A DNA stretch of 64,000 nt from Candidatus Poribacteria bacterium (GTDB taxonomy: Bacteria; Poribacteria; WGA-4E; WGA-3G). The DNA lies in contig OZ242029.1 in assembly GCA_965205015.1 (NCBI GenBank), positions 896,001 through 960,000 on the forward strand, written 5' to 3'. Below are positions 725-37,191 of the stretch, in pieces. How positions within the stretch are numbered: position 1 is the first letter of the stretch; every line of letters starts with the position of its first letter. The notes under the pieces were generated by a model. It was given only the letters and a program-made list of their open reading frames with translations. It did not search any database and was not told the DNA's origin. Made by a program: the position numbers and the translations under genes.

Positions 725-1438
725 TTATTCTGTCTTAATCTCTGCCCACGTTGTAGCAGCCTTCCCGTCCGGTTCAACAGCCATCGGGTCTTTGCCGCCG
801 TAAATCTCGATTTCATCAACGCGAGCCCCGCCATTCGTGCGAATATGAAGACGTAACCACCGCGCCTCTACATCCTTGAAGGTAAACTCAGTCGTTTCAC
901 TCACCGGATCACCCTTGTGCGTATAAACCTTCGTCCATGAGTTTGCATCGGAGTTTGGATCCGCTTTCGAGGTCGCGACCAGGATATCAAAGTCAGCAGT
1001 TGTCCTATCGAGAAACCCCTGCGAATGATCGCTACCGAAGTAGATGCGGTTCACATTGGCAACATCCCCTATATCGATCTGTGCCCAACCGGGTATCGCG
1101 CCGATGATCCAACTCCGGCAGTTGTTGTAAAAACCGTCGTTGAGGTATTCAACACAGTGTCTGCGCGGACACCATCCCTCGAGCTGCGAAGAGGCTTCCG
1201 GTTTCGCATCCTTGAGGAGTGCCAAATTGGGTTCCTTGTCCCGAACCGTCGGCACAAATTCAGGTCCCGGCTTGCCCCCAGCGTCACATTCATCTGTTGC
1301 TGCTTTTTGGTCCTGCTTCTTAAACTCGTAACGCCCGAACTTTTCAGGTCCTTGCGCTTCGTCATGCACTGCAAAGACAGTAAACGTGCTTATGAGCATC
1401 ACTGCTATCACAAGCCACCAATACTTCGTCCATCTCAT
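725..1438 (-). CDS. secreted discoidin/F5-8 type C-like carbohydrate-binding protein with conserved C-terminal TW-x-x-(I/L)K tail
   Basis: ATG 1438 with GGAGG RBS; signal peptide; WAQIDIG...RIYFG...EARWLRLHI...DEIEIYG; ends AVEPDGKAATTWAEIKTE. Confidence 0.7.
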   Translation of the reverse strand: MRWTKYWWLVIAVMLISTFTVFAVHDEAQGPEKFGRYEFKKQDQKAATDECDAGGKPGPEFVPTVRDKEPNLALLKDAKPEASSQLEGWCPRRHCVEYLNDGFYNNCRSWIIGAIPGWAQIDIGDVANVNRIYFGSDHSQGFLDRTTADFDILVATSKADPNSDANSWTKVYTHKGDPVSETTEFTFKDVEARWLRLHIRTNGGARVDEIEIYGGKDPMAVEPDGKAATTWAEIKTE

Positions 1439-1585
1439 TGTAGATTCCTCCGTTTTCAAGGTAGTCTTTAACATCATATTAGCACAAGTGAAAAATTGTT
1501 TCAAGAAAACGGTTATCTCTTGACTTTTTTTTTCTCTGTTGCTATCTTAAGATTGTATTCACCGTTTAGACATTTTCAATTTTTG

Positions 1586-1614
1586 TTGACACCTGTAAAG
1601 ATGTCGCTTATAAT
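1586..1614 (+). promoter_or_regulatory. sigma70 promoter
   Basis: Perfect TTGACA-17 bp-TATAAT upstream of the 1636 ORF. Confidence 0.75.
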
Positions 1615-1635
1615 TCTACCGTAAAGGATCGAAAT

Positions 1636-2385
1636 TTGAAACAGCATGCTATTTTTTGGTTATTCCCTCTCACTTTGATATACGTTTCAGCAGTTTGCGA
1701 TGCCCAAGAGTTGGTGCTGCATCTCTCTTTTGAGGCGTTAGATGGAAAGGTTGCAAAGGACCGTTCGGAATTTGGTAACGATGCAACCTTCAAAGGTTCT
1801 CCAAAACTCATTGAAGGTGTTTTCGGAAAAGCATTGGAGTTCGACGGAAAAACTTCCGGACAAATTCCCGATCATGCCAGCCTTGATATTGTCGATGGCA
1901 TCACCATCGAATTCTGGGCGATTGTCAAAGGGGGTGAGGCAATCCAGAGCGGTGTCGAAAAAGGCGTCGCTTGGGTTTCTGGCTTGTATAATCTCGCAGC
2001 GCTTTACAACGGCGGAACAATCCTTCAATTTTTTGACTTACCAGATGCCTGTAACGATGAGAACATCGGTCCCAGTATTCAGGATGACGAGTGGCATTTT
2101 CTCGCAGGAACATGGGACGGAAAAACAATTCTGCTCTACATCGACGGCGAACTGGAAGCGGAAATGGCGTGTAAAGGTGAACTAACGCCGAACAACGATC
2201 CCCTCTTCATCGGCGCACGTGGCGGAAGTGGACGCTTTCTCACCGGAGCCTTGGATGAAATCAAAATGTATAATTACGCCTTAACCCAAGAGGAACTGCT
2301 TAAGGATATGGAGGCACCTGTTACGTTGCCTGTCAACGTACAGGATCAATTGACTACCGTCTGGGCACGCCTCAAAACCGACTAA
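1636..2385 (+). CDS. secreted LamG/concanavalin A-like domain protein with conserved C-terminal tail
   Basis: Signal peptide; GKALEFDG, WHFLAGTWDG, LYIDG, GALDEIKMYNYALT; ends PVNVQDQLTTVWARLKTD. Confidence 0.85.
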   Translation: MKQHAIFWLFPLTLIYVSAVCDAQELVLHLSFEALDGKVAKDRSEFGNDATFKGSPKLIEGVFGKALEFDGKTSGQIPDHASLDIVDGITIEFWAIVKGGEAIQSGVEKGVAWVSGLYNLAALYNGGTILQFFDLPDACNDENIGPSIQDDEWHFLAGTWDGKTILLYIDGELEAEMACKGELTPNNDPLFIGARGGSGRFLTGALDEIKMYNYALTQEELLKDMEAPVTLPVNVQDQLTTVWARLKTD

Positions 2386-2404
2386 TCATCGCAACACAGG
2401 AGGT

Positions 2405-3013
2405 TTGATGAAAGCGACACGCTATTTTTTGGCACAATTTACAAGCCAAAATGTGCTTTATAAAAGTCCGACGTTTTTTCTTTTACTACTGACCCTCATC
2501 GGTTGCGCGCTTCCCTTCAGCCAGAACCTAACGCTTGAAGAACAGGTCGCAGTCGTCACAACCGACAAAGGTCTATTCGTGCTTGAGTTCTACCCCGATG
2601 CTGCCCCCGTGGCAGTGGACAACTTCATTAAGTTGATTAACCAGAAGTTTTACGACGGCTTAACATTTCATCGGAAAGTTGATACCCGCGGCTTGAATAT
2701 TATTCAGGGCGGGTGTCCAAAAGGCGATGGAACAGGTGGTCCCGGTTGGACGATCACCGACGAGTACACACATCCGAACCAGCGTCCACACGTCAGAGGG
2801 ACGTTGGCAATGGCTCGGACGTCCGAACCCAATTCATCCGGGAGCCAATTCTATATCTGCTTGAAACCCCAACCCCATCTTGACGGAGACTACACTACCT
2901 TCGGGGGTGTAATTCAAGGGATGGATATCGTCGATCAACTATCAATGGGCGATGTCATGACAAAAATCCAATTGGAGGCGAAGTCAAAATATGTTAAGGC
3001 AACAGCAGAATAA
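2405..3013 (+). CDS. cyclophilin-type peptidyl-prolyl cis-trans isomerase (probable lipoprotein)
   Basis: FYDGLTFHR, IIQGG, GTLAMAR, SGSQFYI, HLDGDYTTFG. Confidence 0.92.
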   Translation: MMKATRYFLAQFTSQNVLYKSPTFFLLLLTLIGCALPFSQNLTLEEQVAVVTTDKGLFVLEFYPDAAPVAVDNFIKLINQKFYDGLTFHRKVDTRGLNIIQGGCPKGDGTGGPGWTITDEYTHPNQRPHVRGTLAMARTSEPNSSGSQFYICLKPQPHLDGDYTTFGGVIQGMDIVDQLSMGDVMTKIQLEAKSKYVKATAE

Positions 3014-3593
3014 GCAACATCGGCAGCTCGCATCCGCAGCACTCTTTATCTTAGCGACTTTCTTCGCTACTTTTGTGCTGAGTTGCGCACAAGAAGATAA
3101 GCCAGCCCCCGTCCCACGTGCCCGCCGCGCTGGCACAGGCACCGCAACAACCACTGCAAAACCGCAGATCGACCCTGCAACGGTCATCGCAGTCGTTGAA
3201 ACGGCAAAGGGTACCATTGAATTTGAATTTCTCGCAGCCGAAGCACCCGAAACTTCTAAGAACTTCATCAAAAACGCCCGGGTGATGTATTATAAGGGTG
3301 AGAAGTTTAATCGCGCAGAAGAACTCCTCGTCCAAGCAGGCTCAAAACTTGCCGCTGGAGATACACTCCCGATTGAGAACGGTTCGCAAGAGATGTCGAG
3401 AGGCGTTGTCGCTATGGCAAAAGAGGAAGGGGCAAGCGTTTCCTACGCATCCGAATTCTTTATCTGCCGAGGGGACGCGATCCTCGACAGTGATTACACC
3501 ATTTTCGGAAAAGTCATCAGTGGAATGGACGTGGTTGACAGCATCGTCGTCGATGACATCATTACGAACATCACCATCCGAGACAAAGAATAG
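2991..3593 (+). CDS. second, divergent cyclophilin-type PPIase (lipoprotein)
   Basis: Lipobox VLSC; VETAKGTIEFE, APETSKNF, GVVAMAK, SEFFI, YTIFGKVISGMDVVD. Confidence 0.85.
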   Translation: MLRQQQNKQHRQLASAALFILATFFATFVLSCAQEDKPAPVPRARRAGTGTATTTAKPQIDPATVIAVVETAKGTIEFEFLAAEAPETSKNFIKNARVMYYKGEKFNRAEELLVQAGSKLAAGDTLPIENGSQEMSRGVVAMAKEEGASVSYASEFFICRGDAILDSDYTIFGKVISGMDVVDSIVVDDIITNITIRDKE

Positions 3594-3596
3594 CAA

Positions 3597-3643
3597 TCAG
3601 TAGTCGGCAATCGGCAGTCGGTTTCCGACTGCCGACTGCCAAT
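3597..3643. repeat. heptamer-repeat hairpin, possible terminator
   Basis: CAGTCGG/CAATCGG-like units facing CCGACTG units; core stem GGCAGTCGG-TTT-CCGACTGCC. Confidence 0.6.
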
Positions 3644-4027
3644 ATGGAGGCATCTATGGCATTAACAGTTATCCGCACGGCTCGCCCAAGTCCCGTTTGG
3701 CAGGAAAGTTACGTGCGCGTTGAAAAAGGGCAACGACTCATTATCGATGCGGAGGGCGCATGGTCTCCGGATTTGCAAAATCGGATCGGATGGTGCGGCG
3801 CTGACGGTGTTCCCAAGACACCGGGTTCCAGCGATTACCTGCTTCCCGGTACGAATATTGGGGCACTCATCGCTCAGATCGGAGATGTTACCTTCGCTGT
3901 CGGTTCACGCTACGACAATCCCGCCCCCGCTGACGGTGTTATTTTCCTCGCAATGAACGAAAGTCCAAACAACAATAACCAGGCAGGGAGCTTACTCGCA
4001 CAAATTATCATCTTTGATGACGAATAG
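3644..4027 (+). CDS. LecA/PA-IL-like lectin-fold protein
   Basis: IDAEGAW...GADG...GALIAQIG...IFLAMNE...NNQAGSL parallels LecA GALVMKIG...LIYND...NNSGSF; similar length. Confidence 0.55.
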   Translation: MEASMALTVIRTARPSPVWQESYVRVEKGQRLIIDAEGAWSPDLQNRIGWCGADGVPKTPGSSDYLLPGTNIGALIAQIGDVTFAVGSRYDNPAPADGVIFLAMNESPNNNNQAGSLLAQIIIFDDE

Positions 4028-4087
4028 GAAAATTTTCCTACAAATATTGACTGCCTCTACTGGGCGAATCGGAACCAGGAGCAATAT

Positions 4088-4453
4088 ATGGACAACACCA
4101 CGGTTCAGGAGGAAGCGCAACAAATTCCCCCTGTCGATTTTATCGGTTATCTTGCCAACCTTGTAGAAACAGGACGGCTCTACTTAGAGGGCATCCCGAA
4201 TCCCGAAACGGACGAGGTTGTTACAAACCTTCCGCTCGTGAAACATATTATTGATACGATTGAGATGCTTGAGGAAAAAACGAAGGGAAACCTTACTGCC
4301 CCAGAAGCCAACTTCTTGGCAAATACCCTCTATGAACTCAGAATGGGCTACGTCCGTGCCATCAATAGACAAGAAACCGCCACACAGGCAGAAACACCAA
4401 CTGAGGAAACCGAAGAAGAGGTCTCCACTGAAAAAACCGAGGATTCGTCTTAA
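4088..4453 (+). CDS. DUF1844 family protein
   Basis: LYLEGIPNP...KHIIDTIEMLEEKTKGNLT..E...L...LYELRM. Confidence 0.85.
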   Translation: MDNTTVQEEAQQIPPVDFIGYLANLVETGRLYLEGIPNPETDEVVTNLPLVKHIIDTIEMLEEKTKGNLTAPEANFLANTLYELRMGYVRAINRQETATQAETPTEETEEEVSTEKTEDSS

Positions 4454-4574
4454 CTGAAGACGCAACAATCACCGAGACAAACGATCCACCACATAAGTCC
4501 CAACACTGTTTATTTTCATGAATTGTCTGCCACAAATCGGGTTAACTCTGTTAAACCTTCGAGGAGAATCAATT

Positions 4575-5624
4575 ATGGAATTTTACCACGGTACAACCTT
4601 AAACAGTGCGAGAGGGATCGTTGAAAACGGGTTCCGTCCACGTGGCGGAGCCGTCTGGTTCACAAACAGCCAGGATTATGCGAAAAACCGCGCCGAACAA
4701 AAGGCGCGACGGAAAAATCGGCGTCCAATTGTAATTAAAACCGAGTTGGATGTCGACAAACTTCGAACGCTTCTCGGTCCGGGCAAAATTCATGTACGGG
4801 GCGGCATCATAGCCGCTAACGAACACCTGCCCGTTCAACTTTTACACTCCAACCTCTTTGAGTGGCTCGCGTGTCCAGTCGCACTCTCACAATGGATTAA
4901 CCGTCAATTGGGACTTTACGCCCACAACGGCGTGAGCCAAAACCACTGGGGGGTCGTGAGGTTGGCACACTGGATGAATAACCGAATGCAATCGGGAACC
5001 GGAAACCGTATTGACCGGAAAGAATTCTTTGCAAAAGGCGAACAATGGTTGCCCACGTTCTTTAGTAGAATTCCCTTTAGCCCAGAAGTTTTACCTATTC
5101 AGCACTTACAGAATGACACGATTGAAGTTAATGTGCTGTACCCAGACACACAGGAAAAACCAGACCAGCCAGTGAAAGTTGATGCACATTACACCAAAGC
5201 CATAGCCGACATTTCTGATCAGAATCCGAAACGACGGATACGTGGACTTCAATTCCTTGAAAAAATCGGAACTGAGGACCTATTCGATTGGTGTGTCCTG
5301 CATCTTGAAGACGAATCGGTGGACGTGGTATGCAACGCGCTACGAACTATGCAACGGTGTGACGACGGATACACCGCCCCTATTCTGGGGTATGCTGCAT
5401 CTAAGAACAAACGCATCCGGGCGAGCGCGCTCGCAGCACTCGCAAAGCACGATTCTCATGATGCTGAACGCTGGTTCGAGCGGGGCCTCAAAGACTCTGA
5501 GACGTGCGTCCGTATGGAAGTCGCAAGACTTTTACCAAGGCTCGATAGAATCGAATACCGCACGCTCTTCGACATCGCACGGCACGATCCGAATCCTGCC
5601 GTCAAACGTAGTGCGAAAAAATAG
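4575..5624 (+). CDS. ADP-ribosyltransferase/KptA-like N-terminal domain fused to C-terminal HEAT repeats
   Basis: FYHGT..SARGIVENGF...VWFT....YA; C-terminal HEAT-like units (RIRGLQFL, DVVCNAL, RIRASALAAL, CVRMEVA, DPNPAVKRSA); GAGGAG RBS before ATG 4575. Confidence 0.6.
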   Translation: MEFYHGTTLNSARGIVENGFRPRGGAVWFTNSQDYAKNRAEQKARRKNRRPIVIKTELDVDKLRTLLGPGKIHVRGGIIAANEHLPVQLLHSNLFEWLACPVALSQWINRQLGLYAHNGVSQNHWGVVRLAHWMNNRMQSGTGNRIDRKEFFAKGEQWLPTFFSRIPFSPEVLPIQHLQNDTIEVNVLYPDTQEKPDQPVKVDAHYTKAIADISDQNPKRRIRGLQFLEKIGTEDLFDWCVLHLEDESVDVVCNALRTMQRCDDGYTAPILGYAASKNKRIRASALAALAKHDSHDAERWFERGLKDSETCVRMEVARLLPRLDRIEYRTLFDIARHDPNPAVKRSAKK

Positions 5625-5650
5625 TATTAGCATTAAAACAAAAAGCGAGA

Positions 5651-6670
5651 ATGAATTATCAACGCAAGATTCTCTTTGCCATGGCACTGCTGATTGGCTT
5701 GCTCGGGACGGGGACGGTTGGCTATCTATTGCTCGAAGGGGATAATCCTCAAGGGGAGTGGCAACTTCTCGATGCAATTTACATGACCGTCATCACCCTA
5801 ACAACCGTCGGTTATGAGAACATGGGGATGAGCGATGCTGGACGAATTTTCACCCTATTTCTACTCATTGGCGGGTTCGGCGTGTTCACCTATAGTGTTA
5901 CGATCGCCACCGCATTCCTCATTGAAGGACAACTCCAAAGTTTTTTCCGACAACAAAAAATGGTTCGAACTGTCGATAAATTAGAAAACCACTATATTGT
6001 CTGTGGACTCGGTGATACCGGGGTCCATGTGCTTGACGAGATGCTGAAGTCAGAAGTAGATTTCGTCGGTATCGAATTCGAGGAAGAACGACTCCTCTAC
6101 CTCTCTGACACACGAAACTTTCTATACCTCCACGGCGACGCAACCGATGACGAATTGCTCATACGGGCGGGAATCGAACGCGCCAAAGGGCTCGTCACAT
6201 GCCTCAGCCGTGACCAAGATAATCTGTTCGTCGTGATCTCCGCGAGAAAATTGAACCCACGGTTAAGGATCGCCTCTAAAGCCGTCGAAGACAATTCACC
6301 CGGAAAACTCATGACCGCAGGCGCAGATGAGGTCGTCCTACCGGATCACATCGGCGGACTCCGCCTCGCCTCCGGCATCCTCCAACCACAACTCGTAGGG
6401 TTCTTAGAAAATATCACCCAAAACCAAGACGGTGCCCAGTTCACTGAATCCATTATTCAAGAAGGCTCCGCTCTGGACGGGATCTTACTCAAAGCCGCCA
6501 GCATCCACGAACAAACCGGTTTAGTTGTTATCGCAATCCATGATAACGACGGGACGTTCCTCTATAATCCTCCTGGAGATAAGAAAATTGCAGCCGGTGA
6601 CGCCCTGTTAGTCATAGCCAACCAGAAGCAGCTACAAACATTGCACAAACTTACCGGAGATTTAAGTTAG
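5651..6670 (+). CDS. two-TM potassium channel with TrkA-N/TrkA-C (RCK) domains
   Basis: DAIYMTVITLTTVGY pore helix; HYIVCGLGDTG; GDATD; RCK-C. Confidence 0.9.
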   Translation: MNYQRKILFAMALLIGLLGTGTVGYLLLEGDNPQGEWQLLDAIYMTVITLTTVGYENMGMSDAGRIFTLFLLIGGFGVFTYSVTIATAFLIEGQLQSFFRQQKMVRTVDKLENHYIVCGLGDTGVHVLDEMLKSEVDFVGIEFEEERLLYLSDTRNFLYLHGDATDDELLIRAGIERAKGLVTCLSRDQDNLFVVISARKLNPRLRIASKAVEDNSPGKLMTAGADEVVLPDHIGGLRLASGILQPQLVGFLENITQNQDGAQFTESIIQEGSALDGILLKAASIHEQTGLVVIAIHDNDGTFLYNPPGDKKIAAGDALLVIANQKQLQTLHKLTGDLS

Positions 6671-6680
6671 ACGAAAAGCG

Positions 6681-6709
6681 TTGACCTGTTATCTTCCGCG
6701 TGATATAAT
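6681..6709 (+). promoter_or_regulatory. sigma70 promoter
   Basis: TTGACC-17 bp-TATAAT upstream of comM. Confidence 0.65.
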
Positions 6710-6821
6710 AGAGTCAGACGTTACCGGACGAGATTGAATCTCACCGTTGTAAAATACACGCGCATAAAACACAATATTGCAATACATTCTTAAACTGTTG
6801 AAAATTGGAAGGAACACATAT

Positions 6822-8360: not shown

Positions 8361-8499
8361 CCCTACAAAGAGAGGTTTTCTTAAAATTAGCAAAAGCAAG
8401 CAGCAAGTCGACAACGGAGGCTTGCGGATTTCAAGCAGGAATGGTGCAGGCACAAAGCCATTTCCGCTACGCTTGGCGACTAATTAAAAGAAAGGAAAA

Positions 8500-9852: not shown

Positions 9853-9853
9853 T

Positions 9854-10597: not shown

Positions 10598-10725
10598 TTA
10601 TAAGAGTCGCGGTCGGCGCGTCGCTGGTGAGTTGTTTTTGCTTGGGTATTTCCCCAAGAAATCTCACCCATCAAGAACATCCTTGTTAATGAAATTGAAA
10701 GCCTCGCCAAAAGACGAGATATGTC

Positions 10726-11610: not shown

Positions 11611-11675
11611 AGGGATTGAAAAAACCGTGAATGCCACGTTTCACCTGATACCTCCCGTCAGGACCAAGTTAAAAG

Positions 11676-12650: not shown

Positions 12651-12703
12651 CGCCTGCTATCTGCTACGACACCGGTTCATTGCGTCCATTGGAAACGTCA
12701 ATC

Positions 12704-13975
12704 ATGCGTCTAACAACCCTCTGGATTATATGCAACGTCGCTCTATTTCTCTTTGGGTGCGGTGAGGAAGGCATTGAGGAGATACAACCCGAATCTGAGC
12801 CGGAACACCTCACAGAGACGCTCAATCTCTTCACTGAGAGCGAATGGGCAGTGATTGAAAGTTTATCCCCGCTACCTGACAAACCCCCACCAAGTCCCAC
12901 AAACCGCGTCGCTGACAATCCAGATGCGGCGCAGTTAGGTCAGATGTTTTTCTTTGATGCTCGATTTTCAAAGGAAGGCACGATCGCCTGTGCAACATGT
13001 CATTCACCCTTCCACGGCTTCACCGATGTTGAAGCCACTTCATTGGGCAACAGACGCGGCACAAGAAATTCACCAACGCTACTCAACGCTGCTTATAACA
13101 AATGGCAATTTTGGGACGGACGCGCCGAGACGCTCTGGGCACAAGCACTCTTCGCACTTGAAGGTGAGGAAGAACAAGCAGGCACACGACTTCAGTACGC
13201 GCACCTCATCAAACAACATTATGAAGCAGAATATGAATCCGTTTTCGGCGCACTTCCTGAACTTGAAGATGCCACACGTTTCCCACCTAATGGTAAACCC
13301 GGCAATGTAGCATTCGATAACATGTCCGAAGTGGATCAGATCGCCGTGAATACCGTTTTCGCAAACATTGGTAAGGCAATTGAAGCCTACGAACGCCTTT
13401 TGATTACTCCGAACGCACCGTTTGATCGGTACGTGGCAGGCGACGAAGAGGCAATTACACTCGAAGCGAAACGCGGCTTAAAGATATTCATCGGAAAAGG
13501 CGTTTGTGTCCTCTGCCACGGCACCCCACATTTCAGAGATGACGATTTTCATAATCTTGGGATACCACAAGGACCCTTGCCGGAAGATACCGGACGTTTC
13601 CAAGGAATCGCGAAACTCTTAGCCGATCCGTTTAACAGTGCAGGCATTTATAGCGATTCAAGGGTGGATGCTGCAAACACGCTGAATCTCCTGGAGCCAA
13701 GACTGGAACACCAAGGTGAATTCAAAACGCCAACCCTCCGGAATGTTGCCCTCACGCCACCCTACTTCCACACTGGCGAATTTCCAACACTCGCCTCTGT
13801 CATTGAATTCAACGACGCAGGTGGCACCACAAACGAATTTGCAGGTAGGCGCGCAGCCCCAGTGGAACCCCTTCATCTCAGCGAACAGGAAAAAAGAGAC
13901 CTTGTCGAGTTTTTAGAGACATTGACAGGGGAACCGCCACCCGCCCATCTGCTCATAAAACCTAAACTCCCTTAG
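12704..13975 (+). CDS. di-heme cytochrome c peroxidase/MauG family lipoprotein
   Basis: Lipobox LFGC; CATCH and CVLCH; QFWDGR; FKTPTLRNVALTPPYFH. Confidence 0.9.
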   Translation: MRLTTLWIICNVALFLFGCGEEGIEEIQPESEPEHLTETLNLFTESEWAVIESLSPLPDKPPPSPTNRVADNPDAAQLGQMFFFDARFSKEGTIACATCHSPFHGFTDVEATSLGNRRGTRNSPTLLNAAYNKWQFWDGRAETLWAQALFALEGEEEQAGTRLQYAHLIKQHYEAEYESVFGALPELEDATRFPPNGKPGNVAFDNMSEVDQIAVNTVFANIGKAIEAYERLLITPNAPFDRYVAGDEEAITLEAKRGLKIFIGKGVCVLCHGTPHFRDDDFHNLGIPQGPLPEDTGRFQGIAKLLADPFNSAGIYSDSRVDAANTLNLLEPRLEHQGEFKTPTLRNVALTPPYFHTGEFPTLASVIEFNDAGGTTNEFAGRRAAPVEPLHLSEQEKRDLVEFLETLTGEPPPAHLLIKPKLP

Positions 13976-14730
13976 TTATTTTCCACATCAAGCGGGAGTT
14001 TCAACTGCTCGCGTACGGCTCGCCGGACCTCATCACAGATACGCATGGCGTGTGCCGTTTCGTCCGCGGTCGCGAATTTCCCGGGGTAACGGGGATCCAC
14101 CGCATGTTCCGACAGCTTTGAAAAATCTTCCCGCCACACATCCCAAGCAGGGAGAACCGGGACAATCAGATTCAATAACTCCTGTAAATCGTGTGTCCTC
14201 GGAAACGGAATATTCACCTCTTGAAGCCACGCCTTTAGATACTTTTCAACGCACTGCTGAGTAAGAAAGCAGATAACATCGTTTACTGGATTCTGCCCGT
14301 GCTGATTTTGCTGCGCCACAGTATAATCGCCTTCCGCTTTCTGTACCCATTCCTCTGTCAATGGATTTATCACGTGTTTTTCCTTCTTTACGGGTTTCAA
14401 GAAAAAATTGGGAGTTTCATAAAGCACCTCGCCTTTTTCAGTGATCTCTCGGAGAAACCAGTCGTTATACGCAAGGCGATATGCGAGGTCTTCAGGCGAA
14501 TGCACAAGCACGTGCAGGTGGAAAGGACGCGCGAGACGCTCCCGAATTTCTATCTCCTGTCGCCGTGTTTCCGATTTCGCTATCGGCATCACCACCAACA
14601 GATCAACATCCGATCTCTCCGTGGGCGTGCCGTAGACATAAGAGCCGAACAGCATCACTTGTAACGGCGCGAATTCACGCACGATGTCATCACAGATCGC
14701 TTGAATGTCTTCCCGAGTAACCATGTTCAT
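13972..14730 (-). CDS. fused minimal nucleotidyltransferase (MNT)-HEPN toxin-antitoxin protein
   Basis: FGSYVYG...SDVDLLVV then WVQKAEGDY...QQCVEKYLKA...RTHDL...RYP. Confidence 0.88.
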   Translation of the reverse strand: MNMVTREDIQAICDDIVREFAPLQVMLFGSYVYGTPTERSDVDLLVVMPIAKSETRRQEIEIRERLARPFHLHVLVHSPEDLAYRLAYNDWFLREITEKGEVLYETPNFFLKPVKKEKHVINPLTEEWVQKAEGDYTVAQQNQHGQNPVNDVICFLTQQCVEKYLKAWLQEVNIPFPRTHDLQELLNLIVPVLPAWDVWREDFSKLSEHAVDPRYPGKFATADETAHAMRICDEVRRAVREQLKLPLDVENN

Positions 14731-23653: not shown

Positions 23654-23692
23654 CACACCGCGGGAAAACCATGTGAGGACAAAAAAGAAAAA

Positions 23693-24778: not shown

Positions 24779-24835
24779 TGATACCCGGGCCGAGAAATAA
24801 AGTGGGTTAAAACTATCAAGTACATCTTTTAAATC

Positions 24836-24936
24836 CGCCCTGCACTACGTTACGGGTTCAAGCCTTAGAATTTTAAATGCCGTATCAGGTTGCTTTCTAT
24901 CAAGCAAAACCATAGCCCGTAATGTAATGGAGGGCG
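24836..24936. repeat. REP-like inverted pair
   Basis: CGCCCTGCACTACGTTACGGG ... CCCGTAATGTAATGGAGGGCG; related single arms near 58471 and 60462. Confidence 0.65.
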
Positions 24937-24999
24937 ACTCGATCGCGAAAACTTTCAATGTCCAAACCCCGTGATATACCCGCAAGGTAAAATTAAAAT

Positions 25000-28530: not shown

Positions 28531-28531
28531 A

Positions 28532-29233
28532 ATGAGAAACCTAACACCCATACTCGCAATCACTACAATCATCTGTTTTTCAGTCCATGCCTGGCACCCC
28601 ACCTTTGCCGGGACGTGGCGCGACGACTTTGAAGACAAAGACACCCGTGAATGGGAAATCTTTAATATCGACCGACAGGTTGAAAAGTGGTGGGTCAGTA
28701 ACGGCGAAGCCGTTGGCGAAATCTTTTTGCCCGGTTTCATGAGTCTCTGGATCACCGGTGAACTCACGTGGAAGAACTACTCCCTTTCCTGTCGCGCAAA
28801 GTTAGTGGAAGACAAGAACGAACCCCCAAGTATCGGATTGACGCTCCACGATAGAGGTGAGGAAGATACCCGTTACCTCTTTTTTATAGACTACGTTTTC
28901 GGCACCGCCAGAATCGTCAAAGCACTCCGAGACGACTGGTTTCCCGTCATCTTTGCCTTTGATGCCGAAATCGATACATGGTATGACCTCACTGCGACTG
29001 TTCATGAAGACGGCAGACTTGAATTTCAAATCGATGACGAGATATTCACCGTCATTGACGATGAACCCTTGAAAGGCGGACAAGCCGGGCTCGTTGTCGC
29101 AGACGGGCAAGCCCACTTTGACGACGTCGAAATCACAGGTCCGAATATCAGCAATGGGGGTCCCGGAAAGGCACGTCCTGTCAATCCGAAAGTCAAGCTC
29201 GCAACCACATGGGGACATTTGAAAAGCAATTGA
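28532..29233 (+). CDS. secreted ConA-like (DUF1080-like) protein with conserved C-terminal tail
   Basis: Signal peptide; WRDDFED, WKNYSL, GQAGL...FDDVEITG; ends [18 protein letters not shown]. Confidence 0.7.
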
Positions 29234-29250
29234 CGAAGGATAAACGAAAA

Positions 29251-30420
29251 ATGGAGACCAAACCCACGGTTGGCATCGGCATTATCGGCATGGGGTGGAT
29301 GGGCATGACGCACGCCCGCGCATATCGTCAGATCCTGGATCGGTTCCACGACAGTCCGCGCCACCCCAGACTTGTCATCTGTGCAGATGATGTCCTCGAA
29401 CGCACAACCGAGGCGAAAACACGTTTCGGATTTGAACGCACAACTACCGATTTCCGACACGTTATTGAAGACGAAGACGTACAGGTCGTCAACATCGCCG
29501 CACCGAACAATATGCACCTTGAGATCGTCGAGGCAGCGACAGCCGCAGGAAAACACGTCTTCTGTGAGAAACCCGTCGGACGGACCCCAACTGAAACGAA
29601 AGCAATCTATGCCGCCGCACAGCGTGCAGGCGTATCCACCTGTGTCGGCTATAACTACAGATGGGCACCCGTCGTCCAATACGCACATCAGCTGATTTCA
29701 GAGGGAAAACTCGGTACCTTAACCCACTATCGGGGTAGATTTTTCGCGGGTTACGCCAGCCATCCACACGCAGTCCTCTCATGGCGGTTTCAGAAGGAGA
29801 TCGCTGGATTGGGAACGTTGGGCGATCTACTCTCTCACGTCATTGACATGGCACATTTCATCGTCGGCGGCATCGACAAGGTCGTCTCACAACAGGAGAC
29901 GTTTATCCCAGAACGCCCCGTAGCGACAGCAGGAACCGGCACACATTTCACTCTCAGTGCAGAGGGCGAAACAGATGCCGTCACCAATGAAGATTACGTC
30001 GGTGCATTGGTCCGATTTGAGAACGGCGTCAGAGGCACACTGGAAGCGTGCCGGGTTATCACCGGTCCCAAATGCGAAATGGCGTTTGAGGTACACGGCA
30101 CAAAGGGTGCCTTGCGCTGGAACTTCGAGCAGATGAACGAACTTGAGGTGTACCTCCCTGCCGAAGCGGGTTACCCTGACGGATACACCCGCGTATTAAG
30201 CGGTCCGAGCCACCCGTTTCACAGTTATTTTAATCCCGGTCCCGCTGTTGGATTAGGCTATGACGACCTAAAGACAATCGAGGCACATCAGTTTTTGCAA
30301 GCCATCCACACAGGCAAACAGGCAAACCCAAGTTTCCGAGAAGCCGCCGCAGTCGCCGACGTGCAAACTGCAATCCAAACCTCATGGAAGGAGGGTCGAT
30401 GGATTCCCATCCAAAAGTGA
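29251..30420 (+). CDS. Gfo/Idh/MocA family oxidoreductase
   Basis: [33 protein letters not shown]. Confidence 0.93.
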
Positions 30421-32174
30421 TGAATCAGATTCGCTCGTTCCTACAATTAGGAAAATGGAAGCCGCAGGAATGGAAGGTTGGGAGGCTGGAAGGTTGGAAG
30501 GTTGGGGTGCCTCCCCTGCCATTCTTCCTTTCTTCCACGCGGGTTTTTCTATTCTGTTGCTGCCTCCTCATCTCCCTTAACGCTGTTGCACAACCTTTAC
30601 CACAATTCACCGACATCACACACGAAGCCGGCATCGACTTCGTCCATAACACGGGCGCCTTCGGCAAGAAATACCTCCCCGAAACGATGGGCTCAGGATG
30701 CGCCTTCATCGACTATAACACTGACGGTTGGCAGGACCTCCTACTCGTCAACGGAAAAGATTGGGAAGGCGAGGCAACCCAGAAGCAGCAAACCATGGCA
30801 CTCTACCGCAACGACCAAGACGGCACCTTCACGGATGTCACCGAATCCGCGGGGCTCGCGACACCGCTTTATGGGATGGGGGTCGCCGTCGCCGATTACG
30901 ACAACGACGGGGATCCAGACATCTATATCAGCACCCTCGAAACCGATCGGCTCTTCCAAAACAACGGTGACGGCACTTATGTTGACGTTACAGAAACCGC
31001 CGGCATTCACAACCCGGGTTTCGGCACAAGCTGCGCATGGTTTGATTACAACAAGGACGGTCACCTCGATCTTTACGTCGCGAACTACGTTGAATGGAGT
31101 ATAGAAAACGATCTGTTCTGTACCCTCGACGGCATCAATAAATCCTACTGCACCCCTGAATCCTACACAGGTCAATCCAGCAAACTCTTCAGGAATCGCG
31201 GCGACGGCACATTCGCCGATGTCTCCCGTATCGCACGGATCGAGGACAACACGAGCAAATCACTCGGTGTTTGCATCTTCGATTACAATGCCGATGGCTT
31301 ACCCGACATCTTTGAGGCAAACGACACACAACCCAATAAACTCTATCAGAACAATGGAGACGGCACCTTCATCGAGACCGGAATGCTCGCAGGGATCGCC
31401 TATAACGAAAGCGGTGTCGCAACCGGCGCAATGGGTATCGATGCCGCAGACTACGATCGCATCGGTAAGGAAAGTCTCGTCATTGGGAACTTCTCCAACG
31501 AGATGCTCAACCTCTATCACAACGAGGGCGACTTTTTCATCGACGATGCCCCTGCCGCGCATATCGGAAATGCCACCTTACTGACGCTCACCTTCGCCTG
31601 TTTCTTCTTCGACTTCGATCTCGATGGCAACCTCGACATCTTCACCGCCAACGGGCATGTTGAAACCGACATCAACGCCATTCAGACACAAGTCACCTAC
31701 GCCCAACCCCCGCATCTATTTCACAACGACTCTCAAGGCAAATTCACCGACGCGATTCATCAAGTCGGGGTGGATTTGGCAAAGCCGATGGTCGGTAGAG
31801 GCGGCGCCTATGGCGATATCGACAACGACGGCGACTGGGATCTGCTCGTCACAACCTCCAACGGACCCGCATATCTCTTCCGAAACGACGGTGGCAACCG
31901 CAACGCGTGGCTTAAGATTCAACTCGCCGGACAAACAAGCAATCGCGACGGTATCGGCGCGCAGATCCGCATAACCTCCGCACTGGGGACACAGACACAC
32001 ACAGTTAAGAGCGGCTCCAGCTACTGCTCACAGAGCGAACTTACCGCCATTTTCGGCATAAATGACGATCCTATCATTGAGACAATCGAGGTAACGTGGC
32101 CCAGCGGTGCCATCAGCACACGCAAGAACGTCACACCCAACCAACACATTCGTATTAAGGAAGGCACACCGTAA
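30420..32174 (+). CDS. CRTAC1-family FG-GAP repeat / ASPIC-UnbV protein
   Basis: ETMGSG, repeated DYDNDGxxD loops, SNRDGIGA, GSSYCSQ, IEVTWPSG; exact start uncertain. Confidence 0.9.
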   Translation: MNQIRSFLQLGKWKPQEWKVGRLEGWKVGVPPLPFFLSSTRVFLFCCCLLISLNAVAQPLPQFTDITHEAGIDFVHNTGAFGKKYLPETMGSGCAFIDYNTDGWQDLLLVNGKDWEGEATQKQQTMALYRNDQDGTFTDVTESAGLATPLYGMGVAVADYDNDGDPDIYISTLETDRLFQNNGDGTYVDVTETAGIHNPGFGTSCAWFDYNKDGHLDLYVANYVEWSIENDLFCTLDGINKSYCTPESYTGQSSKLFRNRGDGTFADVSRIARIEDNTSKSLGVCIFDYNADGLPDIFEANDTQPNKLYQNNGDGTFIETGMLAGIAYNESGVATGAMGIDAADYDRIGKESLVIGNFSNEMLNLYHNEGDFFIDDAPAAHIGNATLLTLTFACFFFDFDLDGNLDIFTANGHVETDINAIQTQVTYAQPPHLFHNDSQGKFTDAIHQVGVDLAKPMVGRGGAYGDIDNDGDWDLLVTTSNGPAYLFRNDGGNRNAWLKIQLAGQTSNRDGIGAQIRITSALGTQTHTVKSGSSYCSQSELTAIFGINDDPIIETIEVTWPSGAISTRKNVTPNQHIRIKEGTP

Positions 32175-32268
32175 GTACGTTTCCTAAGGGAAATACGCAG
32201 AAACACCCAAGCAAAAACCCCAAGCAAAAACACTTGCTCTCTACAGAAGACGTTATGGAGGAAACATC

Positions 32269-33273
32269 ATGAAATGCTTATGTTACGCATTCAGCACGTT
32301 CCTTATCTTTGCGCCTGTCTCCACTGTTCTTGCAAAAGCTCCGAAAACTGCCAAAATCGTATTCAGATCCATGCGGGATGGCAACTCTGAGATTTATAGC
32401 ATGAACCCAGATGGTTCTGATCAGAAAAACTTAACCCAGCACCGTGCCCAGGATATTGCGCCTGTCTGGTCGCCGACAGGTAGGCAGATTCTTTTCCAAT
32501 CGGATCGAGACGGGATACCGGATCTCTACCTCATGGATCCAGATGGAACGAATGTGCGTCAGGTCTTCAAAAAATTAATAGGCAGAGAGTTCCCAACCTG
32601 GTCGCCTGACGGAAAAGCACTCGCTTATCACCGATTTCACACATTCTCTATCTACACCGCCTCAATTGACGGAGAAGATGAGGCAAAACTTGCGGAGGGC
32701 TTATGGCCTGAGTGGTCTCCCAACGGTGCTGAGATCGCCTTCGAGGCAGGTAAGTTTGTTTGGGGTGACAACGGCAATCTCAGATTTCTGGACGTCAGAA
32801 TCGAGATTATCAATCTACAAACGCATGTACAAGAGAAACTTCTTCCGAAGAGTATTTGGATGTATGATCCTGCTTGGACCCCCGATAGTGCGCAGATAGC
32901 CTTTACTTGGAACGGTAGGCAAGAGAACGGTTTTTTAGGGGGTAAGGTGGGGCTGCATACCACAGGTATCTATGTTGTGAACCGAGATGGGACCGGACTC
33001 AAGAAGGTTATTGATTCTGGAGAACACACTACAGTGTTTAACGCTACCTGGTCCCCGCTCGGGAATGAACTCATTTACAACGTTGACAATGATCAGGATC
33101 GTAGCCCCAGACAACTTTTCAAAGCCACTTTGGATGGTGGTGTTCCAGAGCAGCTCACACGCCGGGGTAATAACTCCAACGCCGATTGGTTCGATCCTGC
33201 GTTTGCGTTGCCGGTCTCGCCCCAACCGTCCCTTCTGACAACAACGTGGGGCAAACTCAAAACACAAGACTAA
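32269..33273 (+). CDS. secreted TolB-like (PD40) beta-propeller, paralog 1, with conserved C-terminal tail
   Basis: Repeated PxWSPDG, IYSMNPDG; ends LPVSPQPSLLTTTWGKLKTQD. Confidence 0.88.
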   Translation: MKCLCYAFSTFLIFAPVSTVLAKAPKTAKIVFRSMRDGNSEIYSMNPDGSDQKNLTQHRAQDIAPVWSPTGRQILFQSDRDGIPDLYLMDPDGTNVRQVFKKLIGREFPTWSPDGKALAYHRFHTFSIYTASIDGEDEAKLAEGLWPEWSPNGAEIAFEAGKFVWGDNGNLRFLDVRIEIINLQTHVQEKLLPKSIWMYDPAWTPDSAQIAFTWNGRQENGFLGGKVGLHTTGIYVVNRDGTGLKKVIDSGEHTTVFNATWSPLGNELIYNVDNDQDRSPRQLFKATLDGGVPEQLTRRGNNSNADWFDPAFALPVSPQPSLLTTTWGKLKTQD

Positions 33274-33326
33274 TGTCATACAGAAATCGTTTCCTTCTCT
33301 ACAGAAACCTCCATGGAGGAAGTATC

Positions 33327-34313
33327 ATGAAATGCTTATGTTATGCGCTTAGCACGTTCCTTATCTTTGCGCCCCTCTCCGCTGTTATCGCAAAAGCCCC
33401 AGAAACCGCCAAAATCGTATTTACATCAAGGCGAGATGGGAACTTTGAGATTTATACCATGAATCCGGATGGATCCGATCAGATAAACTTAACACACCAC
33501 CGTAGCAAGGATACCTCGCCTGTCTGGTCGCCGACAGGTGAACAGATTCTCTTCACCTCGGATCGAGGCGGGATAGAGGAGCTCTACCTTATGGATCCAG
33601 ATGGAACGAATGTGCGCCAAGTTTTCAAAAAATTAATAGGCAGAGAATTCCCAACGTGGTCGCCTGACGGAAAAGCACTTGCTTATCACCGATTTCACAC
33701 GCTTTCTATCTACACCGCCTCAAGTGATGGAGAAGATGAGGAAGAACTTGCGGATGGCTTATGGCCCGCGTGGTCTGCCGATGGTTCTGAGATCGCTTTC
33801 ATGGCAGCTAAGTTCGCTTGGGCTGAAAACGGAAATCTCGGACTACCGAAGGTCAGGATCCAAATTATCAATCTACAAACGCATGTAGAAGAGGCACTTC
33901 TTCCGGAGGGGATAGGGATGTTTAACCCTGCCTGGGCACCCGATAGTACGCAGATAGCCTTTTCTTGGAGAGGTGTGCAAGAGAAAGGTAGAGGGATAGG
34001 GGGCACTATGGGTATCTATGTTGTGAACCGAGATGGGAGCGAACTCAGGAGGATTATTGATGCTGAAGATGGCATGGCAGCGTTTAACCCTACCTGGTCA
34101 CCAGATGGGAATGAACTCATTTACAACCAAGGGGTGGGTGGCGTCAGAGACCTCTTCAAAGTCGCTTTGGACGATGGTGTCCCAGAACAACTCACACACC
34201 GGCAGGGAGATAACTTCCGAGCGGATTGGTTCGATCCTGCGTTTGCGTTGCCGGTCTCACCCCAATCGTCCCTCTTAACAACGATATGGGGAAAACTCAA
34301 AACACAAGACTGA
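33327..34313 (+). CDS. secreted TolB-like (PD40) beta-propeller, paralog 2, with conserved C-terminal tail
   Basis: Tandem duplicate of 32269-33273 including the upstream CTCTACAGAA...ATGGAG region; ends LPVSPQSSLLTTIWGKLKTQD. Confidence 0.88.
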   Translation: MKCLCYALSTFLIFAPLSAVIAKAPETAKIVFTSRRDGNFEIYTMNPDGSDQINLTHHRSKDTSPVWSPTGEQILFTSDRGGIEELYLMDPDGTNVRQVFKKLIGREFPTWSPDGKALAYHRFHTLSIYTASSDGEDEEELADGLWPAWSADGSEIAFMAAKFAWAENGNLGLPKVRIQIINLQTHVEEALLPEGIGMFNPAWAPDSTQIAFSWRGVQEKGRGIGGTMGIYVVNRDGSELRRIIDAEDGMAAFNPTWSPDGNELIYNQGVGGVRDLFKVALDDGVPEQLTHRQGDNFRADWFDPAFALPVSPQSSLLTTIWGKLKTQD

Positions 34314-34324
34314 TTCAAACAATT

Positions 34325-35197
34325 TCATTCCTTAAGCCGCCCCCATACCGTCGCGAGCTTTCCTTGCGCGTCAACTGCGAGCGTGCCATCGGTCTCTGCA
34401 CCATTTTTACCCACCAGATGGTGGGCATTGCCTGATGTATCTGAGAACTCGCGTGTTCCCCTCGTTTCATCAAAATGCCACAACGCAACCGTTCTTGCGT
34501 CGGTCTTGAACTTTTTACGCGGCGTGAAACCCCATTTAGTGATATCGTAACGCGCAACCCTTGAAACGCGGACCTCATCAATATAGCCCGCAAAATGACC
34601 CCAAAAATTACCGTTCCAAAACTCAATTTCTTCTCCAAACCCTCCGATTGTAAAATCCTGTGGATGTCCGGCGGGTGAGATATCAGGGGCGAGAGGTATT
34701 CCCTGCGGTAAGACGCGTACTAACTCGTTAACGATGAGTGTCGTCTGTTTCTCTTCTGTCTGAAAGGCGATGTGATGCCATTGATTCGGAGGAAACTCTA
34801 CTATCATGCCAAGCCCCATCATAGGTAACGCTATTACAGCGTTCGGAGCGTTCTCTCCGCCAATATCAAAGTAAGCTTCACCTGTTAGTTTTAAAAATCT
34901 GTCGTGAGGATGGTTCACGATGTTCATCTTCACCTGTTGGCTGAGAATCACCGCGTGTATATGCTGGTCAGGCGGCGTGGTTGGATATATCCATGCTTCA
35001 AAGGTCCACTCATCTGCGCCTTTTGGCAAGAGGAGACCGAAGGTTTCAAAGTCCAAAACTGCATGGTCATCCACCCCATCAAGGACTAAACAGTTCCCAC
35101 CCGCAGGGGAAGGCGGTGGCATCGCTTCAGCACGCAACGGAATTAAAACCAGCAGAAAAAGACAAGCAAAAATTGACAGATTTCGTAGATTTTTCAT
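34325..35197 (-). CDS. secreted LamG-like domain protein with conserved C-terminal tail
   Basis: LDGVDD, WTFEAWIYP, WHHIA, GYIDEVRVSRVARY, ALWHFDE; ends AVDAQGKLATVWGRLKE. Confidence 0.85.
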   Translation of the reverse strand: MKNLRNLSIFACLFLLVLIPLRAEAMPPPSPAGGNCLVLDGVDDHAVLDFETFGLLLPKGADEWTFEAWIYPTTPPDQHIHAVILSQQVKMNIVNHPHDRFLKLTGEAYFDIGGENAPNAVIALPMMGLGMIVEFPPNQWHHIAFQTEEKQTTLIVNELVRVLPQGIPLAPDISPAGHPQDFTIGGFGEEIEFWNGNFWGHFAGYIDEVRVSRVARYDITKWGFTPRKKFKTDARTVALWHFDETRGTREFSDTSGNAHHLVGKNGAETDGTLAVDAQGKLATVWGRLKE

Positions 35198-35244
35198 CCT
35201 CGTAACTCTCCTTGATTTTAATTTAATGCTATCCCTCATTTGAG

Positions 35245-37191
35245 TCAATGGTTCCTTTTTTTAATCGCTTTCCACGTTTGCATGAGTTTCCCCATTAGGT
35301 CGACGCTCCGAGGAACTTCGACTGTGCCGTATACATCAACTGTTGTAAGTGGCTTAAAAGCATCATTACTGCCCCCAAAGATATAGATATTCCCATTTAC
35401 TACCTCAGTCCTATGTCCTGATCTGCGAGTCGGCATGTCCGGCTTCCGGGTCCAACGGTCAGTTTCAGGATCGTAAATCTCAACCGTTGAGAGATATATG
35501 AACCGATCATTGTCCCAAAAACCACCCCCTATTACGTAAATCTTTCCATCAATTACACTTGCCGTGTGCAGTGCTTTTGAGGTAGGCATTTCAGCTATTT
35601 CTGTCCACCGATTGTTCTTTGGATCATACACTTCAACACTGGAAAGAGAGGGACCTGGATGATTTGGAATCTGGGGCCATCCCACTCCACCTATGACATA
35701 AATCTTTCCATCCACAACGCTTACTGCCGGAATACCACGGGCATGATTCATACTTTTAACTTCTGCCCATGTATCAGTCGCTGGATCATAGACATCCACG
35801 CTATCCAAGCGTCCCTGTTTTTTGTTGGCTGCTGAACCACCAACGATATAAATCTTTCCATCTACGACACAAGCCCTGCCACTCCGCGGCACAGGCATGT
35901 CCGCTTTCTGGATCCATGTGTCGGTGCCTGGATCGTACATTTCTATAGTCGGGAGAAGTTTACCACCGTACCCCCAACCGGGACCACGCTGAAATTTCTT
36001 TGATGCTCCGCCACCAATGGCATAGATTTTCCCATCTACAACCAAAGTAGCTACGCCAGTCCGCGCTGTCGGCATATCCGCCTTTCGTTCCCATGTATCG
36101 GTTTCCGGGTCGTACATTTCGACCGTTGCAACGGATATGTCACCAAACTTGTCAACGTCACCACCGATTGCGAATACTTTCCCGTCCACGACACACGTCC
36201 CAAAGTTAAATCGGGGGGTTGGCATGTCTGCTCTCGGCATCCACTGTTTGGTAGCATTTTCCGGTGCGACAGATACCGAGGTTACATTAGAAACTTGGGT
36301 GCCAGTACGGCTGATTTTACCGGGAGTGGCATCCCGTCCGACCTGATTTCGCACAGCAGGTTTCGCTTCTATATCAAGGATAATCGGCGTATCGATGATT
36401 TCAATCGTCGGTTCAGACCGCGCTTCGAAACTATACGGTCTCTGGAAACGGGTGAGGTATCGGTTGCTCGCGCCGATAAGTAAAGCGATCAAAACCGCAG
36501 CTGCCCCCAAAGCCATCCATGGGAGAAAAGGTTTAGGAGCCGGAGTCGGTGTGGGTTCCATCTCAGCGACTTGTCGCATGACGTTCTCACCTAAACTCGC
36601 CGGTATTTGCACGCCACCGAAAACTTCTTGGATCATCAGTTCTTCGTCCGCTTGCAAACGCTCTCGTCCGCGACGAAGTCTACTTTTAATAGTGCCCACC
36701 GACACGCCTAAGAATTTCCCGATCTCTTTGGTCGTCATTTCACCGAGATAGTAGAGTGTCATGACCGTGCGTTCGCTCTCCGGAAGCTTCGCGAGCAGCT
36801 TTTTGACGAGTTCACGGCGATGCTCGGTGAGTTCTATTTCTCGCGCTTCCGATACATGATGTATATAAGAGGCTCTTTCGACTTCTTCCACAGGTGTGTC
36901 CTCCAGCGATTGCGTTGGGAGTCCTCTCTTCCGACTCCAATCAATGCAAAGCCTATCTGCGATGACATACAGCCATCCAGCAAACTGATTGTGATTCTTG
37001 AGCGTTGAGAGTTTTTTGTATGCTTGAAGGAAGGTGTCTTGGGTAATATCTTCAGCAATGTGAAAATCCCCGATCTTCCGCCATACGAGCGCGTGGACGC
37101 TTTTCTGGTATCTTTGGAGCAAGACACCAAATGCTTCATCATCTCCCGATAAGGTTCTCTGAATCAGTTGAACATCGTCTTCTCTCTCCAC
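35245..37191 (-). CDS. ECF sigma-70 factor fused to a TM helix and a six-bladed Kelch propeller
   Basis: AEDITQDTFLQAY, FAGWLYVIA, EIGKFLGVSVGTIKSRLRR; TM LPWMALGAAAVLIALLIG; 6 x MPxxR...VDGKIYxIGG...YDP...W. Confidence 0.9.
   Translation of the reverse strand: MEREDDVQLIQRTLSGDDEAFGVLLQRYQKSVHALVWRKIGDFHIAEDITQDTFLQAYKKLSTLKNHNQFAGWLYVIADRLCIDWSRKRGLPTQSLEDTPVEEVERASYIHHVSEAREIELTEHRRELVKKLLAKLPESERTVMTLYYLGEMTTKEIGKFLGVSVGTIKSRLRRGRERLQADEELMIQEVFGGVQIPASLGENVMRQVAEMEPTPTPAPKPFLPWMALGAAAVLIALLIGASNRYLTRFQRPYSFEARSEPTIEIIDTPIILDIEAKPAVRNQVGRDATPGKISRTGTQVSNVTSVSVAPENATKQWMPRADMPTPRFNFGTCVVDGKVFAIGGDVDKFGDISVATVEMYDPETDTWERKADMPTARTGVATLVVDGKIYAIGGGASKKFQRGPGWGYGGKLLPTIEMYDPGTDTWIQKADMPVPRSGRACVVDGKIYIVGGSAANKKQGRLDSVDVYDPATDTWAEVKSMNHARGIPAVSVVDGKIYVIGGVGWPQIPNHPGPSLSSVEVYDPKNNRWTEIAEMPTSKALHTASVIDGKIYVIGGGFWDNDRFIYLSTVEIYDPETDRWTRKPDMPTRRSGHRTEVVNGNIYIFGGSNDAFKPLTTVDVYGTVEVPRSVDLMGKLMQTWKAIKKRNH

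Follow-up and report, generated by a model that had tools for sequence, protein, structure and literature searches.

What is the role of a short ending shared by seven proteins of unrelated folds? This question was raised by a stretch of 64,000 nucleotides of Candidatus Poribacteria bacterium (assembly GCA_965205015.1, contig OZ242029.1, positions 896,001 to 960,000, forward strand), the whole of which is called the window below. Seven of its open reading frames (ORFs) end in L-A-V-E/D-P-x-G/D-K-L-A/T-T-T-W-G/A-x-L/I-K followed by 1-4 residues, and an initial annotation had proposed that this tail is a lineage-specific export, anchoring or assembly tag. We found that the motif is strictly adjacent to the stop codon, is linked to export, is independent of the fold, is abundant in and restricted to the phylum Poribacteria, and decays in fusions tethered to the membrane. 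In our preferred explanation, to which we give about even chances, the tail would be a short linear localisation or docking tag, read in trans by a conserved partner in the cell envelope. The genome-scale counts reported here come from related Poribacteria genomes. The genes concerned, with the position of the tail in each, are as follows.

725..1504 (-): exported F5/8 type C (discoidin-like) protein; tail AVEPDGKAATTWAEIKTE encoded at 728-781
1636..2385 (+): exported Laminin_G_3 protein; tail PVNVQDQLTTVWARLKTD encoded at 2329-2382
28532..29233 (+): exported ConA-like protein, whose orthologues carry PF06439; tail encoded at 29177-29230
32269..33273 (+): exported PD40 propeller; tail PVSPQPSLLTTTWGKLKTQD encoded at 33211-33270
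33327..34313 (+): paralogous exported PD40 propeller; tail encoded at 34251-34310
34325..35248 (-): exported Laminin_G_3 protein; tail AVDAQGKLATVWGRLKE encoded at 34328-34378
35245..37191 (-): extracytoplasmic function (ECF) sigma factor with one transmembrane helix and a Kelch propeller; degenerate relic tail SVDLMGKLMQTWKAIKKRNH encoded at 35248-35307
~566-640 (-): eighth copy of the tail, KLAVTWGHLK, probably a relic, in the spacer below the discoidin gene, with only 23 residues of open frame upstream

All seven ORFs were found at these places with the endings that the initial annotation had quoted. A six-frame scan of the window with the pattern [TVQI][TVQI]W[AGK]x[LI]K gave eight matches, seven of which sit 1-4 residues before the stops of ORFs of 230-650 amino acids. 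In 200 first-order Markov simulations of the window, a mean of 0.05 matches was obtained anywhere and 0.005 beside a stop. The same scan showed that the motif is absent from all other ORFs of the window, including the cytoplasmic enzymes, as had been claimed. Among the window tails, synonymous codons vary for Leu, Lys and Thr; the conservation is therefore at the peptide level and not at the DNA or RNA level, and a DNA-level element was ruled out on these grounds. The folds proposed for these proteins were confirmed by Pfam, which returned F5/8 type C, Laminin_G_3 (twice), PD40 (twice), and ECF sigma regions 2 and 4 together with Kelch; the 28532 protein has no Pfam match of its own and was assigned to the ConA-like fold through the PF06439 of its orthologues. 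The second PD40 gene is likely to start at 33327, although its longest ORF begins at 33186. At its start, the 34325 Laminin_G_3 gene shares 4 bases with the end of the sigma-Kelch gene, and the two genes therefore probably form one operon. As for the eighth match, it looks like the remnant of a lost gene. Tail matches in very short open frames (25-79 amino acids) turned up in other Poribacteria genomes too, and such relics suggest that tail genes are frequently lost.

In order to describe the tail position by position, 62 tails from fetched loci were aligned that fall outside the search pattern and hence carry no bias from it; they had been chosen by a W-x-x-[LIVM]-K core, so that W and K are fixed by construction. 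With W numbered 0, the upstream positions are L at -12 (52%), A/S/P at -11, V at -10 (87%), E/D at -9 and P/A at -8, followed by G/D at -6, K at -5 (81%), L at -4 (77%), A/T at -3, T at -2 (61%) and T at -1 (71%). From W onward, G/A occupies +1 (96%) and L/I +3 (90%); K stands at +4 and is followed by polar or basic residues. The conserved part of the tail thus covers about 17 residues.

The strict C-terminal position claimed for the motif was borne out by a degenerate DNA pattern for K-L-[AT]-T-T-W-G-x-[LI]-K that carried no stop-codon condition. A stop was present within 12 codons in all 135 unique matches, and within 8 codons in 134 of them, so the motif is tied to the C-terminus without reaching it. 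Between 1 and 8 residues follow the Lys at +4: three in 96 of 184 tails, two to four in 159 (86%), and zero in no tail. Most of the residues in this trailing stretch are R, S, Q, T, A, N or K. Because the spacing from Lys to the end is 1-8 and never 0, and because every match of the DNA pattern lies near a stop, recognition seems to sense a nearby C-terminus. Two known uses of a C-terminus were rejected on the same data: attachment of the Braun lipoprotein type through a terminal Lys, since the invariant Lys is terminal in 0 of 184 tails, and the beta-signal of outer-membrane proteins (a terminal aromatic residue on a beta-barrel), since the residues at the end are of the kinds just listed and the proteins are soluble lectin and propeller folds.

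The same spacing bears on a possible role in processing or turnover, in which a periplasmic protease sensing the C-terminus, or a transpeptidase cutting after Lys, would mature, attach or degrade these proteins. The constrained distance from Lys to the end (mode 3, mostly 2-4, never 0) would fit such a cut, and the residues past Lys, otherwise unconstrained and polar, resemble a short leaving group. However, no candidate enzyme was identified, and the variability of the last residues is unlike the classic PDZ-type recognition of terminal residues. As an explanation of the whole tail we consider this quite improbable.

To examine the proteins that carry the tail, complete ORFs of at least 150 amino acids were called by ourselves in the tail loci, and a hydrophobic stretch within the first 70 residues was taken as an export signal. 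By this rule, an N-terminal signal is present in 131 of 135 tail ORFs but in only 314 of 754 ORFs without the tail (Fisher p = 1.5e-38), in line with the co-occurrence with export signals initially proposed. The four tail ORFs that lack a signal comprise two sigma fusions and two ORFs that are probably truncated. As a lipobox-like motif was seen in only 10 of the 135, most tail proteins would be ordinary substrates of signal peptidase I, as far as so crude a rule can indicate. The proteins are small, with a median of 270 amino acids (5th-95th percentile 224-380).

The tail was found on 33 sequence clusters, among which Laminin_G_3 is by far the largest with 91 members. The other clusters bear the Pfam names PF06439, F5/8 type C, CBM9, PD40, Kelch, BNR/Sortilin, LTD (lamin-tail domain) with He_PIG, ankyrin, DUF4960 and DUF3108-like, and about a dozen clusters had no Pfam match. 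The cargo thus consists mostly of small non-catalytic binding modules: LamG and ConA-like lectin folds, discoidin, CBM9, and PD40, Kelch and BNR propellers. Sulfatases are abundant in the tail loci, and none of those seen bears the tail. A further conserved stretch, W-x-T-E-S-E-L-N-N-A-G-F, precedes the tail within the last ~130 residues of large LTD proteins (loci L045, L077, L017 and L067); it gave no Pfam match at E up to 0.01.

Structure models were then compared for two unrelated folds. For the 28532 protein, AlphaFold2 (34 sequences) gave a ConA-like sandwich at residues 27-203, with block pLDDT (predicted local distance difference test) values mostly of 82-98, and left the last 18 residues as coil with pLDDT below 50, outside the sandwich domain. 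For a free Kelch homologue (67 sequences), a confident propeller was obtained and the tail was modelled as a detached helix at residues 345-358, with block pLDDT values of 69 and 59. In both models, the tail is thus predicted to lie outside the folded domain and not to be an integral strand of one fold, an outcome that would have refuted the proposal of the initial annotation. The tail is independent of the fold that carries it.

These models, together with the nature of the cargo, also bear on an assembly tag, in which the tails of different lectin-like proteins would associate to build multivalent complexes. Small single-domain binding modules, which dominate the cargo, would indeed gain avidity from multimerisation. 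Nevertheless, the tail is unstructured in the monomer models and the need for a position next to the C-terminus is left unexplained, and we regard association of the tails as very unlikely to be their function.

Further evidence came from the seventh protein of the window. When the Kelch part of the sigma-Kelch protein was used as the search query, two sets of proteins were recovered: fusions of sigma factor, transmembrane helix and Kelch domain (~648 amino acids), and free Kelch proteins with a signal peptide (~360 amino acids). By a loose rule for the core, the tail was present in 69 of 72 free Kelch proteins and in 14 of 39 fusions. When W, G/A, L/I/V/M and K were demanded together, the figures were 66 of 72 and 1 of 39, respectively. 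The tail can still be aligned in 30 fusions. In place of W, 5 of these have S and 2 have R; at the G/A position, 20 carry E and 9 carry K; and L/I has become T in 9. Nine further fusions have no recognisable tail. Over the Kelch part, the fusions are closer to the query (57-97% identity) than the free proteins (47-74%); decay thus affects the tail while the domain remains well preserved.

The tail of the window protein, KLMQTWKAIKKRNH, has K where the canonical core has G/A after W. Judged from these alignments, it is a decaying relic and not a working copy. Because the core is canonical in nearly all free proteins and in a single tethered one, our own reading is that the tail may be under selection only in proteins released from the inner membrane. 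Its decay in tethered fusions fits a localisation tag and argues against a role in the folding, stability or ligand binding of the domain.

The decay also bears on a translational role, in which the nascent tail would slow termination to aid export. The tail does stand beside the stop codon in every case, as this would require. However, anything between 1 and 8 codons separates it from the stop, whereas known arrest peptides need exact spacing, and the tail decays in the sigma-Kelch fusions although their large periplasmic domain is exported. A translational role therefore appears extremely improbable.

Other sigma fusions were examined in two closed genomes, from which 40 long ORFs with sigma domains were fetched (L135-L174, G001 and G002); 29 have a predicted transmembrane helix at residues 208-251. 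The canonical tail was found in none of these 29 other fusions, one of which has a tail-like variant with 13 trailing residues. In these, the sigma factor is joined through one transmembrane helix to a large outer domain. A paralogue group in the first of these genomes (G001) shares a terminal motif of its own, resembling K-M-R-K-E-N-G-x-W-R-I-Y.

Next, the tail was compared with known sorting signals. Whole proteins and 45-residue C-termini gave no match to a sorting signal in Pfam or NCBIfam (E up to 10), which agrees with the earlier statement that the tail matches neither LPXTG nor PEP-CTERM nor the C-terminal domain of type IX secretion. A profile of the tail returned nothing meaningful from PDB sequences (best E-value 0.32), and no description of the tail was found in the literature. 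The tail is nevertheless of a known kind, a C-terminal address on exported proteins, yet it is unlike the described members in being short, unstructured and without a membrane segment.

One of the closest parallels is the C-terminal domain of the type IX secretion system (T9SS; Por_Secre_tail, PF18962 / TIGR04183), which is likewise a C-terminal address on Sec-exported cargo of many folds, in dozens to hundreds of copies per genome. That domain, however, is folded and spans ~75 profile positions, whereas the Poribacteria tail has ~17 residues and is unstructured; the seven tail proteins and their 45-residue C-termini gave no match to PF18962 or TIGR04183 at E up to 10. Four distant Kelch homologues (33-45% identity; JGI and ENA records) have a T9SS-type domain at their end instead of the tail.

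PEP-CTERM/exosortase, LPXTG/sortase and GlyGly-CTERM/rhombosortase also rely on short C-terminal tags carried by unrelated exported proteins within a lineage. Tripartite signals of the sortase type consist of a motif, a hydrophobic transmembrane stretch and a basic cluster. Unlike these, the Poribacteria tail has no hydrophobic stretch after the motif and ends 1-8 polar or basic residues past Lys, and no NCBIfam model of this class matches it. An analogy, and only an analogy, is offered by the peroxisomal targeting signal PTS1, a short C-terminal signal without a membrane segment that is found on many folded families and is bound by PEX5, a soluble receptor sensing the C-terminus. PTS1 differs in being eukaryotic, cytosolic and only three residues long, and there is no homology between the two.

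The distribution of the tail was established by several searches. The named homologues belong to Candidatus Poribacteria. A profile of the seven window tails, run against 1.84 billion representative proteins, gave 133 matches at E up to 0.001. Among these, 122 are C-terminal tails, with the core at most 8 residues from the end in 116 and 9-10 residues from it in 4, the remaining 2 being cut or variant. The other matches are 7 false positives in repeat proteins and 4 internal tails followed by 23-87 more residues, which look like read-through or merged gene calls. In one of the internal matches (P0079), a PD40 tail runs into the start of an ECF sigma factor.

At the DNA level, a scan of one genome per prokaryote species with the degenerate pattern gave at least 134 stretches. 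Among the 133 loci listed, the titles name 119 Poribacteria, 10 "uncultured bacterium", 2 Pseudomonadota (one bin contig), 1 Deltaproteobacteria bin and 1 Synechococcus. Three of the "uncultured" genomes were searched and contained from 96 to at least 150 tail matches each; the Pseudomonadota bin had 5. In a follow-up search the Synechococcus genome had none, so its match to the DNA pattern was due to chance. A second profile was built from 136 tails and matched, at E up to 0.001, all 150 sampled Poribacteria genomes, in which 33-368 first-look candidates were available per genome and up to 57 per genome were scored; it matched none of 121 cyanobacterial genomes. In five genomes of 4.6-6.8 Mb, between 96 and at least 150 matches were counted in each at E 0.01. 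The tail is therefore restricted to the phylum Poribacteria and abundant there. The lineage part of the tag proposed in the initial annotation stands; export, anchoring or assembly is still a proposed role. No cognate machinery was found. One viral contig of IMG/VR encodes a tail protein of 355 amino acids that also has a signal peptide and a lamin-tail domain. Its gene adjoins a coiled-coil ORF of 1913 amino acids that looks like a tape measure protein.

A reader of the tail was sought among neighbouring genes by calling and clustering ORFs in 126 merged regions, with flanks for the first 80 loci. The most recurrent neighbours without the tail were PhyH (18 regions), GFO/IDH/MocA (15), ECF sigma factors (14) and FG-GAP/ASPIC (14), followed by SpoIIE (10), TPR (9), WD40 with a T9SS domain (8) and DUF6785 (8). 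There are 20-33 copies of DUF6785 per genome, 22-44 of sigma factors and 7-19 of ASPIC. By our own arithmetic from these copy numbers, DUF6785 and sigma factors occur near tail genes at about the background rate and ASPIC about 3 times more often. All of the recurrent neighbours were rejected as specific partners; the ASPIC excess is confounded by orthologous synteny. The polytopic membrane protein family DUF6785/DUF6784 (e.g. L072:7829-9913 (-); G001-G004) has these 20-33 copies per Poribacteria genome and is absent from 14 control genomes and one Synechococcus.

Components of a T9SS-like apparatus were also searched for, the search covering the SprA and PorV types only. The following ORFs were located in closed Poribacteria genomes.

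L175:9257-15829 (+): SprA-like ORF
L178:1351-2361 (+): PorV/PorQ-family ORF

The SprA-like ORF (~2200 amino acids) occurs once per genome and shows colinear sub-threshold matches to TIGR04189, with SprA_N at 30.2 bits for a cut-off of 27; its gene neighbourhood is not conserved between two genomes. PorV-family ORFs, for which NCBI uses the name PorV/PorQ in Poribacteria, are present above cut-off in one or two copies per genome. A single-cell study from 2014 describes T9SS-type domains on WD40 proteins and reports that no structural Por genes were found (PMC3909097). In the genomes examined here, ORFs with PF18962 number 11-40 per genome, are mostly of 500-3800 amino acids and are separate from the small tail cargo. 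Two C-terminal tags therefore coexist in the same genomes, a folded domain on large proteins and a short tail on small ones. A complex prediction between a PorV-family protein from a Poribacteria genome (336 amino acids, 60-row alignment) and a 36-residue tail alignment scored 0.00 in both runs and, having been made without controls, counts neither way.

The result of the neighbour search is compatible with a tail that has no protein receptor at all. In that case, the tail would form a short cationic amphipathic helix, in which L, W and L/I share one face and are flanked by Lys, and would bind the released periplasmic proteins directly to a membrane or to lipopolysaccharide, as do the C-terminal helices of PBP5 and MinD. 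The helix modelled at residues 345-358 of the free Kelch protein agrees with this, as do the invariant W and K, the trailing residues rich in R and K, and the absence of a dedicated partner gene near the tail genes; decay after fusion to a transmembrane helix would be explained by redundancy. The helices of PBP5/DacA and MinD resemble the tail in their place at the very C-terminus and in their disorder in free form; they are amphipathic with basic residues, as the tail may be. However, it is their character that is conserved, whereas the tail is conserved residue by residue over 33 clusters. Its 17 conserved positions, including V-E-P and G/D-K, appear far tighter than a generic amphipathic anchor would need. 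In addition, the tail offers just three hydrophobic residues, and a near-invariant Gly lies among them; its helix reached a pLDDT of only 59-69, and in the ConA-like protein it was modelled as coil with pLDDT below 50. A direct membrane anchor thus seems unlikely.

We favour a docking tag read in trans. The proteins would be synthesised with a Sec signal peptide and set free in the cell envelope, where a conserved partner would recognise their unstructured last ~20 residues and sort or dock them; the outer membrane or cell surface is the most plausible destination. The short stretch beyond the invariant Lys may be removed in the process. In a more specific and clearly more tentative form, the tail would be the ~17-residue signal, without membrane segment, of a new Poribacteria sorting system that takes 100 or more lectin-like proteins of each genome, exported by Sec, to the cell surface. 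Its reader might be a transpeptidase cutting after Lys, or an adaptor to the divergent SprA/PorV-type apparatus that is encoded in the same genomes.

Several points weigh against the docking tag. No reader was found, the genes near tail genes recurring at about the rate expected from their copy numbers; and, as the tail is present in all 150 sampled genomes, profiling by presence and absence within the phylum cannot point to a partner. The helix of one model is compatible with membrane binding without a partner. The export link relies on a crude hydrophobicity rule applied to self-called ORFs. The sigma-Kelch fusions constitute one orthologue group, so that some of their substitutions, notably G to E/K, may have been inherited once and not reflect repeated decay. 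Finally, the processing, surface location and binding of tail proteins are predictions made from sequence.

Still uncultivated, Poribacteria count among the dominant symbionts of marine sponges. From 96 to at least 150 copies in 4.6-6.8 Mb, we estimate that the tag is present on a few percent of their genes. Nearly all of these code for binding modules of a type that would be expected to encounter glycans of the host or in solution. If the tag does serve for sorting or docking, much of the exported proteome would pass through an undescribed machine. With the tag as a simple sequence rule, this exported set can be listed for any Poribacteria genome. That the tail decays in tethered fusions narrows where a reader must act, and the conserved tail peptide is a ready bait for it.

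Some other features of the window were recorded. Directly after the 1636 LamG gene (a 20-base gap, then an overlap), two genes at 2405-3593 (+) encode cyclophilin-type isomerases with lipoprotein-like signals; the pairing of a LamG tail gene with a cyclophilin gene did not recur in other tail loci. A gene with a helix-turn-helix and Peptidase_M78, overlapped by a DUF4411 gene (37775-39459, (+)), and a nucleotidyltransferase-HEPN gene (13972-14730, (-)) are typical of small mobile or defence-type modules. Two large ORFs occupy 39692-45879. In another Poribacteria genome, a locus (L075) syntenic to window 28532-37191 retains the genes for the ConA-like and LamG tail proteins as well as the FG-GAP/ASPIC gene, but its sigma fusion has a BNR/Sortilin propeller without the tail in place of Kelch.

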